Positions 23,726-52,260 of a DNA stretch of 64,000 bases are shown piece after piece. Source of the stretch: Octopus vulgaris (lineage: Eukaryota). The stretch's first letter is position 1. Each line of letters starts with the position of its first letter. The notes under the pieces were generated by a model that was given only the letters and a program-made list of their open reading frames with translations, was not told where the DNA came from and searched no databases. The position numbers and the translations under genes were made by a program. The stretch lies in the NCBI GenBank assembly GCA_951406725.2, contig OX597814.1, forward strand, positions 14,508,001 through 14,572,000. The letters are read 5' to 3'.

Positions 23726-24884
23726 TCTGTGTGTCTGTGTATGTGTGTTTGTGTGTCTGTGACATTTTGATAGATACAGTGATATGAAAACTTAGCAGAC
23801 ATAATCAGACACTTGACCAAGTTCATGATTGTTTCCAATTTCCGCTTGAAAGCAAATCTCTTCGTTTATTTCATTATCTCTCTAGACAAAATATGAATGT
23901 CACAACAAACTATTTCCTTCAAGGGTGGTTGTAGATTTATGAAAACTATGCTCTGTTTGTTGTAAAATTACAGCGGACCTCAATGTTCCCTGCGGGCTAC
24001 GTCTGAGAACTTGCTACACCTGCTGAAATCTCTTACGTTTCTTATGATATTCATACTCTGAACCACGTTATGGAGGCAAACCTTCCACATTCGTAACTCT
24101 CAACATAAAGCATCACTTTGTTAAGTAAGAGTATTGAGTGGTATTGATTTTCATAACATTGGAGTAAAGCCACTTATTTTTGAGGAATGGGATTATATAG
24201 TCAATTAAATCGAATCATTACCTGACTACACATTATTTTTTTAGATTCCATCTGAAAAGAAAATTTTAAGTTCAAAATTCACTTAGGTCAATTTTGCCTC
24301 CTGTTGTTCCCGGATCGTTTTCATTTTTCCAAAATTAAATTGCCGGTCGAGTTACTAGATGTAATAGATTATATCTCTCCTCAAAGTATGTGGCCTTGTA
24401 CGTAAGTTTGAAATCAATATAATTGTTGAGAAGGACGATGATTTGGAAGAATCGTTCGAAAGACAGACGAAATAGAATACAGCATTTCAAACGTCGCTTT
24501 AGGTTCTCACATTCTAATTTGATTATTTAAAGTACCTCCTTCCCCACAGAAAGCTCTAACTTATTTCATTTCGGACTCGAAACAGTGACATTATTCCGAG
24601 AAGAACATGTTGACGCATTTTTTTATTAAAATTGTATAAAATTAGAAATATTACATTTCTAAATATCTCAGAGAGATATAAGCAGTGGTGAACGATAAAA
24701 CAGTTGTATACTGTCAATTTAACGTGACAGTCCCATAAAGGGAATAACACCACCGCTATTTAGCCCTAGGAAGCATCAACGCTTCCTGTCGGCCTTTTTG
24801 TGATCAGTGAATTTACTTCACTGAAATTATATATGTTTGCAAAGTCTAGACAGGTATCTTCAACCTGCTAGTAAGCCATGCTAC

Positions 24885-24926
24885 TCCAGACTGATGACGA
24901 GCAAGACTCAGAAACACGTCTTTGGA
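24885..24926 (+). ncRNA. Type I hammerhead ribozyme
   Basis: tccaga-CTGATGA-c gag caaga ctc a-GAAA-cacg-TC-tttgga. 6-bp stem I (one G-U), canonical core, GUC site. Confidence 0.75.
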
Positions 24927-37886: not shown

Positions 37887-38673
37887 ATTCATAAGTGTAT
37901 ATACATATAGATGAACATATATTTATGTTCATATGTATATGCACACATCAGTCTAGGGAACTCTGTTATCACTTCAATGAATGAGGAATCAGCAAGACAC
38001 ATACGCACAATCTTAGTTTAATGATTTGTCTTTTATTTAGTAGGTTTACTAAATCCATATCTTTCCCAAATCCGTTGAAAATTACTATTCCTCAATAGTA
38101 GCCTGTGTGCGATGTCAAAACAGTAGAATTCCAAGAGCATGCTCCTCCTATCTCTGTTGCCTCAGCCACTTTTCCTAGCGACACTGAATTAATGAAGGGC
38201 GATCGTCTTTGTGTTGCTGTAATGGCTTCATAACCTGTACAATGAATATTATTTTATTGGCCTTGGTGTCTGGTGAAAATAGTATTACGTATCGAGTAGC
38301 TTTCAGAATGCAGGATTCATATGGAGCTAACTATTCTTAGATCAGCAGCTAAAGTGTTAAGGAGTTTCGTCTACAATGGGTCCATAGGGACATGTTAATT
38401 CACTCATAAATCGGACCATGCGGTTCTGAATGAATCTGTGAATTATTGGAGCTACGAGGGATTTCTACACGCCTTCAGATACTTAGAATACTTATATATA
38501 TGTATATATATATATATCAGTGAATTATTGTATTATCGTTTGTTTCCAGTTAACACGAAAAATTCAATAAACAGTTACCAGTATAACAAAATTTACGCAA
38601 GTAACAAGGATGTAGCGACCTATTCAAAGGTAGAAGCACCGGGTTAATGTGCAGTAATTTGTATAGTGTAAGT

Positions 38674-38890
38674 AAATAAATGGAGTTGAACGCAGGTGTT
38701 ATTCAAATTGTTTTACTTTCGACGTATGTTTCGAAGACAACATTGGTTTTATTCCAAAGTAATAAGCGGTGTAAGATAATGTAATATTCTCATCAGGAAA
38801 GAGAGAGCACCCATCTCAACAACAAGACATTATAACGTATGTCGAAAGTAAAAGAACTTGAATAACACCTGCGTTCAACTCCATTTATTT
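38674..38890. repeat. Fold-back element, 57-bp inverted arms
   Basis: 38674-38730 versus 38834-38890. The right arm lies within 3 nt of (TA)n. Confidence 0.9.
38716..38801 (-). ncRNA. Type I hammerhead ribozyme
   Basis: Minus strand ctttc-CTGATGA-gaa..(long stem II)..ttc-GAAA-catacg-TC-gaaag; canonical core, GUC site. Confidence 0.8.
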
Positions 38891-38892
38891 TC

Positions 38893-38964
<72 letters not shown>

Positions 38965-39087
38965 GTATGTATGTATATACATATATATTTATATATGTGT
39001 GTGTGTGGATGTATATATATATATATATATATATACATAGATAAATATTGGTGCCTTGTTGTACCACTACTCTCTCTCTCTCTCTCT

Positions 39088-39131
<44 letters not shown>

Positions 39132-39233
39132 TCGGGGTGAGTACTTGATAATTATAAGCACCTGTGTATACCGTTTGGTGGTGTAGGTGGTGGAGTAAAT
39201 TGATCAAAAGAAAAACATGATGCCAAGGAATCA

Positions 39234-39311
39234 GCGGTACATATGTTTCGGGCCTTTATTAGACAGATTTATAACAATGCATAATGTATGTCTGTGGCCT
39301 TCTTCAGCCGC
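39234..39311 (-). ncRNA. Type I hammerhead ribozyme (mirror copy)
   Basis: Reverse complement of 39582-39659. Confidence 0.75.
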
Positions 39312-39581
39312 GCACAACAGCTTCCACAAGGACATGTGTTACATCAAAAATTCTTGGTTGGGGATGCAAATCCTCTCATTCGCGTACGACATAATGCGGC
39401 AACAGCATAGAATTGAAGCGTCCATATCTTTCTTCTCTCAATGATTCTACATTGAGATAAGAAAGAGATGGACGCTTCAATTCTATGCTGTTGCCGCATT
39501 ATGTCGTACGCGAATGAGAGGATTTGCATCCCCAACCAAGAATTTTTGATGTAACACATGTCCTTGTGGAAGCTGTTGTGC

Positions 39582-39659
39582 GCGGCTGAAGAAGGCCACA
39601 GACATACATTATGCATTGTTATAAATCTGTCTAATAAAGGCCCGAAACATATGTACCGC
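39582..39659 (+). ncRNA. Type I hammerhead ribozyme
   Basis: gcgg-CTGAAGA-a ggcc..ggcc c-GAAA-catatg-TA-ccgc; palindromic stem III (acatatgt), GUA site. Confidence 0.75.
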
Positions 39660-39716
39660 TGAATCCTTGGCATCATGTTTTTATTTTGATCAATATATAT
39701 ATATATATATATAAAT

Positions 39717-39745
<29 letters not shown>

Positions 39746-39754
<9 letters not shown>

Positions 39755-39870
39755 GAAGGAGCTTCTACGGGACTAGAACTGTTTCATTCAAGAGAAATCT
39801 TCAGGAGCTTCCTGAAGATTTCTCTTGAATGAAACAGTTCTAGTCCTGTAGAAGCTCCTTCTATATAATA
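39746..39870. repeat. Hairpin with 61-bp arms and a 3-nt loop
   Basis: 39746-39806 versus 39810-39870, 1 mismatch. Unique tail continues to ~39942, then (TA)n. Confidence 0.95.
39803..39859 (+). ncRNA. Type I hammerhead ribozyme
   Basis: aggagcttc-CTGAAGA-t ttc tctt gaa t-GAAA-cag ttctagtc ctg-TA-gaagctcct; 9-bp stem I, GUA site. Confidence 0.8.
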
Positions 39871-39939
39871 AATTAATTTTACTCTGCTATGTATTGAGTA
39901 CCTTATTTACTGTGGTTAACCCCGAATCAACCCGGGACC

Positions 39940-39989
<50 letters not shown>

Positions 39990-40045
39990 TATATGTATAT
40001 AAAACAATAAATGGTGGGGCTGTGTTGACCGCACGTGGAGAAATG

Positions 40046-40243
40046 ATAGGAGAGGAAAAATTATAAAAAAACAGAAAACTAAATTGAAGGTAAATTTTAA
40101 TAAAAAATGGGTGAATGGAAAATTTTAAAAATAATAATAATAGCCGGTTTGAGTTATTATTTTTTAATTTTCCTTATACCCATTTTTATTAAAATTTACC
40201 TTCAATTTAGTTTTCTGTTTTTTTATAATTTTTCCTCTCCTAT
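40046..40243. repeat. Fold-back element (~90-bp arms) without a recognisable HHR
   Basis: ataggagaggaaaaattat... versus ...ataatttttcctctcctat. The right arm runs into (TA)n. Confidence 0.9.
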
Positions 40244-40977
40244 ATATATATATATATATATATATTTATTTTTATTAGTGGAATAACCCGTCGTCGCAGA
40301 GCAATTTATATAATAAGATATCTTATATAATTTTTTGTTTATTCCATATCATAACATGCCTTCCCTGACAGATCGGCCTCTTGATCAGGACAGATCTGTG
40401 CAATTTTTCTCCAAAAGACGCCATTGACGATTTTTTCCTTCTTAAATTATTTCCATGTTTATTTAATCGTTTCACATATTTTATTCATTAAAACTTATTT
40501 AAACTTCAGACGATCTTACAGCTTTGATCGTAGTAATGCTTTGCTTTCATTTGTTTAATACAAATTACTCCCCCTAATGATTTTGCTTTCATTTTGTGAT
40601 AGACAGCTATCATGCCAGCTACCAAAATCTGTTTTCTTATTTGGTAAAAATGATCAAAATTTAAACCTAAGTAACATCACTCTGCAATTGTTATGGAACA
40701 AATATAAAGCAAAATCGGATTTTACGCGGAAAATCCCAAATTTGAAAATGTTGACGTAATTTCAATCTCGCAATATGTGAAAGTAACAGGAAAGACTGAC
40801 AGAGAGACTGCTAGTTATAGGACGTGACACACACACCCAGACACACTCACAGAAACACACAGACACACACATTGACATACGTACACACAGATAATCACGA
40901 GTTTAAAATGGTGTATAGAGGGCATATGTATGTACGTATATATGTATTTATACACACACACACACACACACAATATA

Positions 40978-47085: not shown

Positions 47086-47087
<2 letters not shown>

Positions 47088-47308
47088 TTTAAGAAACACA
47101 CAAAAGCCGTTCGATTCACTTCAACATTTAAGTTTAATTTGTCAAAATATTTTCGTCACTAAAATCCGCGACCTGTTCACTGACAAAAATCCGTGCTGCA
47201 TCTCTTTTTGTCAGTGAACAGGTCGCGGATTTTAGCGACGAAAATATTTTGACAAATTAAACTTAAATGTTGAAGTGAATCGAACGGCTTTTGTGTGTTT
47301 CTTAAATG
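47086..47308. repeat. Fold-back element, 104-bp arms, 15-nt spacer, between (TA)n tracts
   Basis: 47086-47189 versus 47205-47308, one difference. Unique tail to ~47393. Confidence 0.95.
47207..47256 (+). ncRNA. Variant type I hammerhead (G3-C8 core)
   Basis: tttgtca-GTGAACA-g-gtcgc ggatttta gcgac-GAAA-atat-TT-tgacaaa. Confidence 0.65.
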
Positions 47309-47391
47309 GCTTATAAACACCTTCCACGCTGCAATTGTTTTCGTTTCAGCACACGATCTCAGATCAAATTACTTGCTATGCGAGTACATCT

Positions 47392-47441
<50 letters not shown>

Positions 47442-51565: not shown

Positions 51566-52007
51566 CGCACAGAGATTATCTTCCTTATGTATTTTAAATC
51601 TTTATTGAAGGACCACGCAATATATTTGAGTGCGTCATTTATTTGACAGTAAGTCCAGGTTTCACCGCTTATTGTATGGGAATATGTATGTACAGTCTTA
51701 CTAATATATATATATTTATATATATGTTTTTGCTACTCTAAAATTTATTAACATATATATATATATGTTAATAAATTTCAGAGTAGCAAAAACATTTAGA
51801 AAAATTATTTGCTACCAGTGGTCTAGCGAGAAGAAAAAACTAGTCAATAGACTATATATTATGCATATAAAAATGCATTGTATATTTAAAGACATACCAG
51901 ATGGCCATAGCAGGACATCTGACTCGCTTAAAAGAGTAGTTAAAACTCCAAACCACTATTAGGAGTAATTTCGAAAGGGAATGAAAAATAAAAACATTAC
52001 CCCTCTA

Positions 52008-52087
52008 TTTCTTGTACCATGCATGGTTTCAAGCAATATTTAGTAATTTAAAATAATTTACACTGGCAAAGCTATCATCAGCAGAAA
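52008..52087 (-). ncRNA. Type I hammerhead ribozyme within a (TA)n-bounded element (51767-52194)
   Basis: Minus strand tttctg-CTGATGA-t agc..gct t-GAAA-ccatgcatgg-TA-caagaaa. Palindromic stem III, GUA site, one bulge in stem I. Confidence 0.75.
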
Positions 52088-52189
52088 AGATTAACATATG
52101 AAACGAGGCGATAAAGAACACGCTTCGTATTTACATGTTAAAATTTTTTCAAAATCCACCGTGCACGCGCGTTTTTATAGAGGGTAAAT

Positions 52190-52260
<71 letters not shown>

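Follow-up and report, generated by a model that had tools for sequence, protein, structure and literature searches.

The four fold-back elements clustered at positions 38520 to 40265 of the window, which is the whole 64,000-nucleotide stretch of Octopus vulgaris DNA that was analysed, are almost certainly 3'-end pieces, that is pieces of the pseudo-LTR (pLTR), of endonuclease-bearing Penelope-like element (PLE) families, as judged from sequence. We consider it fairly probable, taking the mechanism as a whole and not the PLE identity alone, that they are 3'-end insertions of four such families, the fold-backs having arisen through two-start priming at a cut within (TA)n. The architecture itself has already been published (PMC8557442, PMC3846280 and PMC11167929, cited here and below from the parts available). 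What the elements add is the near-strict pairing of one long arm with one short arm and the pile-up of arm ends at predicted transcription starts, and these two features likely record how PLEs copy themselves. By their motifs, the parents are new families within known PLE clades, families 1 to 3 being of Hydra type and family 4 of Neptune/Nematis type, where Neptune and Nematis are not separated.

All four inverted repeats of the sequence-only reading were recovered, and each full extent is flanked by (TA)n. Element 1 (38520-38893; inverted repeat 38674-38890, 57-nt arms, 4 mismatches) consists of a long, tailed minus-strand arm at 38520-38830, assigned to the 3' end of the Hydra-like family 1 with its hammerhead and a 144-nt tail, and a short, tailless plus-strand arm at 38834-38893 that stops at (TA)n. 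The spacer to the next element (38894-39126) is made up of (TA)n, (TG)n and (CT)n. Element 2 (39127-39692; inverted repeat 39196-39697, 245-nt arms, 4 mismatches) has its long minus-strand arm at 39127-39443, comprising the pLTR and a 73-nt tail of the young Hydra-type family 2, and its short plus-strand arm at 39450-39692, the junction lying at an initiator-like TCATTC of the parent. After a (TA)n spacer (39693-39748), element 3 (39749-39942; inverted repeat 39743-39873, 57-nt arms, 1 mismatch) shows the reverse order, with a short minus-strand arm of family 3 at 39749-39806 and a long plus-strand arm at 39807-39942 that begins at hammerhead stem I, the predicted transcription start, and carries a 71-nt tail. 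A further (TA)n spacer (39943-40001) leads to element 4 (40002-40240; inverted repeat 40046-40243, 73-nt arms, 7 mismatches), whose long minus-strand arm at 40002-40140 is assigned to the 3' end of the Neptune/Nematis-type family 4 with a 47-nt tail and whose short plus-strand arm at 40168-40240 stops at the (TA)n of 40241-40265.

The arm geometry proposed earlier stood, as in all four elements a gap of 0-4 nt separates the end of the short arm from (TA)n and the long arm continues for 47-144 nt before the next (TA)n. The description of the spacers as short and (TA)n-rich was right in general and failed for the spacer between elements 1 and 2, which measures 233 nt and is not pure TA. Similarly, the claim that other sites in the window follow the same rule held for the long/short geometry of the fold-backs at 47086 and 52261 and broke down at 51767-52194, where the arrangement is tail-to-tail. 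The fold-back at 47086-47394 was without a hammerhead by the type I descriptor. The sequence at 51714-52192 is a solo minus-strand copy of a fifth, hammerhead-like family (2474 candidates), in which the long and short ends lie 85 nt apart and a TATA-like motif is found upstream of the core. Here a 39-nt tail piece (51714-51752) abuts the copy at 51767-52194 tail-to-tail with (TA)6 between them, and tail-only pieces of this family adjoin other copies too.

Hammerhead ribozymes were sought with our own type I descriptor (core CUGANGA/GAAA/UH with stems I-III); ribozyme activity is a prediction throughout. Outward-reading cores were found in the window at 38796(-), 39307(-), 39586(+) and 39812(+), spanning 38721-38796 in element 1, 39307-39238 and 39586-39655 in the long and short arms of element 2, and 39812-39850 in the long arm of element 3. 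The claim of three hammerhead-bearing elements was thus borne out for elements 1 to 3, against a mean of 0.05 cores per shuffled window (40 shuffles). In the minimum free energy structure, element 3 adopts a complete hammerhead whose stem I has 9 bp, and element 2 a minimal one; element 1 does not take this shape, and its stem II is partly damaged compared with the commonest family-1 form. The folding z-scores are weak (-1.65 for element 3, +1.09 for element 2 and -0.46 for element 1), and the Rfam scan at E<=1 returned no hammerhead family, only spurious miRNA hairpin matches. In the families with a canonical hammerhead, the core style matches that of supplement S2 of PMC8557442, as far as the available part goes. 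Element 4 has no core by the type I descriptor; CUGANGA was present in 0/25 family-4 copies (last 600 nt), and by eye only GAAA and half of a palindrome are discernible in this family. A solo minimal type I hammerhead motif lying outside any fold-back was also noted at 24884-24926 (+).

The Penelope-like origin suggested by the sequence-only reading was supported by the parent families, where the arms lead into reverse transcriptase (RT) and GIY-YIG endonuclease (EN) frames and grade without break into ORF-bearing copies of up to 3.3-4.7 kb. Its further description of a non-coding retroelement population has to be abandoned, since all four elements are ends of coding, endonuclease-bearing PLE families. 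These families are abundant: the first look gave 2088 candidates for family 1 (copies about 90% identical), 1621 for family 2 (copies 99-100% identical, 752 exact 34-mer matches) and 1499 for family 4, and family 3 gave 5637 exact 34-mer matches. Partial tandem copies (loci L036, L251, L252, L253) and inverted copies (L031, L032, L174, L175 and others) were both found, that is, pLTRs formed by a partial tandem or inverted 5'-truncated copy with an optional tail, as is characteristic of EN+ PLEs.

Coding capacity is best preserved in family 2, whose long copies carry a 2-kb UTR and, upstream of it, a single ORF with RT and GIY-YIG (motifs YRDD and VIY..YIG); open frames reach 835 aa in locus L174, and several of 842-850 aa occur among 150 scored matches. 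This protein has DKT instead of DKG (ADKT/GDKT; the equivalent region was not recovered for families 1 and 3), the linker CNCICASEC (CxCX5C), CQLC and CIH, and is without CCHH. At its N-terminus RWA or RWT stands in the column where 8/9 relatives have RWK or RWR, and two Asn/Thr-rich inserts missing from most relatives were noticed in the copy at L174:1651-4155. Family 3 shows the linker CNCPDKTTC with CDRC and CMH in broken RT and EN frames lying 3.2 kb upstream in the same orientation, a link seen at a single locus, L172, where the intervening 3.2-kb UTR is of low complexity. A homologous endonuclease frame lies directly upstream of family 1 in the same orientation in 5/30 loci (broken frames), with CNIC and CKH and with the linker cysteines missing in 3/3 translated copies. 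The family-1 EN frames at L059, L047 and L049 are without the cysteine linker, a proposed determinant of (TA)n targeting, yet their 3' ends lie at (TA)n. Upstream of family 4 lie broken frames of RT-thumb-like and EN type that bear the motifs CX4CxxC and CxxC..H..H; its CX2-5CxxC linker and CCHH were pieced together from loci L201, L202 and L209, each degenerate at some cysteine, and no intact ORF was seen in this family. As local Pfam and PDB sequence searches gave no match to these PLE proteins, the clade calls were made from motifs and by-eye comparison with published alignments, the Hydra assignment being made against the available supplement alignment of PMC8557442 and not by placement in an RT tree. 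Among named proteins, the best relatives are those of Argonauta and Octopus.

The (TA)n targeting and divergent orientation that had been proposed were both upheld beyond the window. In a 120-locus set, composed of the first 30 loci per family retrieved by patterns common to both arm types (6 without usable alignment dropped, repeat views of one event merged, elements 1 and 2 of the window included), 133/142 3' ends were no more than 12 nt away from (TA)3+. Among the first 100 family-3 matches, all 25 neighbours less than 500 bp apart were divergent (25/25). An independent view came from a 400-kb sample of 40 arbitrary 10-kb stretches of the genome, in which one end was no more than 10 nt away from (TA)4+ at 19/33 fold-back loci (9% expected) and the hammerhead cores numbered 12, as against 0-3 in shuffles. 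Two of these 19 TA-anchored fold-backs had another within 150 nt and therefore clustering at TA tracts is general, in agreement with the view of (TA)n tracts as repeated hotspots; four TA-anchored fold-backs within 1.75 kb would be rare if placement were random.

Each family has two fixed 3' ends, long and short, and the fold-backs nearly always combine one of each. Of 46 fold-backs in the 120-locus set, 41 were tailed plus tailless, none was long+long or short+short, and 5 were untypable or intermediate. A further family-3 set of 29 events gave 24 long+short, 3 untyped and 2 short+short by a crude regex (L371 and L377, the flank of L371 showing tail bases). Among 15 long family-2 loci there were 5 long+short, one untypable and one long+long, the last (L262) having duplicated flanks as well. 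Solo copies, defined as having no partner within 1.5 kb, were about half short, with 10 long and 10 short in family 4 and 6 long and 9 short in family 2, where 3 of the 9 short represent one duplicated event; the short end therefore needs no partner and can be a primary start. When 5' reach was compared in 30 typed pairs, the short arm extended further in 10, the long arm in 4, and the two were equal in 16; central deletion after insertion may blur which arm reached further.

In the long insertions of family 2 the arms are sister sequences in 6/7 cases, four pairs having private shared bases. The near-strict pairing and the sister arms suggest one RNA with two sites, a reading to be taken together with the fact that gene conversion or snap-back synthesis also yields sister arms. 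Junction positions and inserted bases are highly variable within every family, and this copy-to-copy variation fits fold-back formation at each insertion. Iterative microhomology joining is expected to give short repeated inserts copied from the junction, and such inserts were observed at the family-3 junctions of L366, L370 and L355. At loci L354-L383, family-3 arms have lost one G 4 bases past the predicted cut site (132 exact matches vs 5637 intact); the loss occurs in several subfamilies and, in almost all cases that could be typed, spares the partner arm. It could stem from slippage of the RT close to the cut or from errors of long reads within hairpins.

The 5' ends of the arms are not spread evenly in two of the families. 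In family 3, 17/23 at-risk arms stop inside a 4-nt window at the first bases of stem I, giving a P of about 1e-17 for a window picked after the data were seen, and 9/9 native contexts, which are homologous to each other and not independent, have a TATA box 29 nt upstream of this stop, although the spacer between has diverged. In family 2, 9/19 arms stop in a 22-nt window, also post hoc, around the initiator-like TCATTC. Family 1 showed no significant 5' pile-up (P 0.13) and none was seen in family 4. The junctions of elements 2 and 3 of the window fall at these predicted start sites. The simplest reading of the pile-ups is run-off on RNA that starts in the pLTR at the predicted starts. Besides, the tandem copies of family 2 (L036, L251, L252, L253) carry a near-identical 15-16 nt motif after both RT start sites, from which we infer a candidate positioning signal.

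These observations can be accommodated in a mechanism in which the enzyme, probably a dimer, would nick both strands in (TA)n. Priming by one DNA end at the distal site of the RNA would yield the tailed arm; the second DNA end would use the proximal site, probably of the same RNA, and yield the tailless arm. Both cDNAs would end at the 5' end of the RNA or before it and be joined via short microhomologies. The shortest stubs, in families 3 and 2, would not be random truncations; they would result from run-off copying and cover the RNA between its transcription start in the pLTR and the tail. Since insertion would leave (TA)n on either side, later elements could land beside earlier ones. A fuller version, coordinated twin priming with leader run-off, is more tentative and we place it somewhat short of even: an RT-EN dimer would hold one RNA at the two repeated motifs, each end of the (TA)n break would be primed at a different site, and displacement of the first cDNA would leave two overlapping copies, the tiny fold-backs representing run-off copying of the 5' leader of the mRNA, between transcription start and tail. 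If true, twin priming would account at once for the tail, the inverted pLTR and the large number of solo pLTRs.

Priming from both DNA ends, as the sequence-only reading had it, is probably correct, and it has to be weighed against a route that we hold unlikely, in which the same PLE families form the second arm by self-priming, a cDNA or an antisense template folding back at a short palindrome and being copied, and the short end results from endonuclease resolution of the intermediate. Self-priming at palindromic junctions is the view given in the discussion of PMC3846280, and a tail arising via EN-mediated resolution is proposed in PMC8557442, both in their available text. Family-3 junctions, often centred on an AGCT palindrome with a 4-nt overlap, suit self-priming, and sister arms and strict long+short pairing would follow from it directly. 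However, if a tailed cDNA had snapped back, the short arm should be contained within the span of the long arm, whereas it reached further 5' in 10/30 typed pairs, and by about 440 nt in locus L032. Solo short copies are frequent and the two ends act as RT start sites in vitro in another PLE (PMC11167929), and because of these three points both-end priming is favoured over snap-back.

Priming at both DNA ends also accounts better for the variety of the fold-backs than their movement as whole, non-autonomous hairpin units, whether a non-coding retroelement or MITE-like, which we regard as improbable. Family 3 does consist nearly entirely of short fold-backs, one of its junctions (-137/-137) is exact in 5/17 events, and one junction is common to three family-1 events. 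But the recurrent family-3 junction is found in at least three subfamilies and sits at the predicted transcription start, junctions and inserted bases vary in every family, the arms are continuous with ORF-bearing copies, and the fold-back termini are asymmetric. MITE terminal repeats are symmetric, and a MITE or fold-back DNA transposon was rejected on the asymmetric ends, variable centres and common solo single-arm copies; for element 4, a single-arm query likewise revealed centres that vary, copies standing alone and a parent with coding capacity. A non-LTR retrozyme was rejected as there is no tandem unit in the region and the arms are continuous with coding parents. That the inversions are assembly or amplification chimeras is very improbable indeed. 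Long palindromes are a known source of long-read artefacts, and the 1-nt loss in one family-3 arm could be a read error of this kind, but between 1 and 7 substitutions separate the two arms of an element, and the ends fall at fixed sites characteristic of each family. Moreover, a short-read contig of run X5 (39398-39488, 91 nt, 1 mismatch) spans the centre of element 2, its unique flank differing from the window, and the joins of the short end of element 3 to (TA)n occur in short-read runs X1, X2 and X3; no short-read contig was listed across the centres of elements 1, 3 and 4.

How PLEs acquire inverted pLTRs and tails is treated as an open question in the available text of PMC8557442 and PMC11167929, and a twin-start or run-off reading was not found in the literature as judged by titles and abstract openings, subscription papers being mostly outside that scope. 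The genome holds thousands of young footprints for testing twin priming, and young families with ORFs provide a test bed in which the pairing, the solo ends, the TATA/Inr pile-ups and the repeated motif give sharp in vitro predictions. TA-anchored fold-backs occur roughly once every 20 kb, which means that PLE debris makes up many of the hairpins and hammerheads of this genome, a point of importance when microRNAs and ribozymes are annotated.

Comparison with known systems places the elements within a described framework: the literature on PLEs already reports insertion at (TA)n, truncated copies inverted head-to-head, tails confined to one end and reverse transcription from two start sites (available parts of PMC8557442, PMC3846280 and PMC11167929). 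The Hydra clade of C-terminal EN+ PLEs is described by DKT, a CxCX5C linker, absence of CCHH, and CxxC and CxH near the end; hammerheads, (TA)n targets and a representative from octopus, Hydra-1_Obim, appear in the supplement, and a 5'-truncated inverted copy is noted for Penelope-13_HM (Craig et al. 2021, PMC8557442, parts available). The Hydra-type families found here resemble this clade in the RT with C-terminal GIY-YIG, DKT, the linker, the absence of CCHH, the CxxC and CxH, the type I hammerhead in the pLTR and the (TA)n targets. Family 2 is by eye a separate family from Hydra-1_Obim, differing in protein and hammerhead; it is about 4.8 kb long with its 2-kb 3' UTR and 73-nt tail, whereas Hydra elements are generally <3 kb, and it has RW[AT] where Hydra has RWK. 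Family-1 copies, in contrast to Hydra, seem to be without the Cys linker. Family 4 resembles Neptune/Nematis in the CX4CxxC linker, the CxxC in the GIY-YIG core with two later His, and the microsatellite target, and is unlike them in having neither a CUGANGA core (25/25 copies, last 600 nt) nor an intact ORF among those seen (PMC8557442, in the part available).

With PAc, the Poseidon element of Anolis, for which cutting and extension of both strands and two RT start sites were reported in vitro (Frangieh et al. 2024, PMC11167929, available text), the elements share two starts that bound the tail, an AT-rich target, AC-rich RNA at the starts (the family-2 tail is AC-rich) and a predicted dimer. 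In the same text the two sites are not tied to opposite arms nor the stubs to the transcription start, and the PAc tails measure 30-40 nt as against 47-144 nt here. The Penelope elements of Adineta vaga and Drosophila virilis resemble the present ones in the head-to-head inverted pLTR with a tail on one, in junction palindromes or overlap and in the pLTR promoter (TATA plus Inr in Pen2a_Av); they differ in the self-priming explanation given, in low copy numbers and in visible target duplications, which are hidden by (TA)n here (PMC3846280 and PMC2377424, as far as available). The Asn/Thr-rich inserts of the family-2 protein also recall the N-rich inserts described for Adineta Penelopes (PMC3846280). 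Metazoan non-LTR retrozymes are likewise non-coding, with a type I hammerhead and a link to PLE pLTRs, but they are tandem arrays, unlike these four elements, which are inverted pairs continuous with coding parents (bioRxiv 10.64898/2026.07.22.740005, available part).
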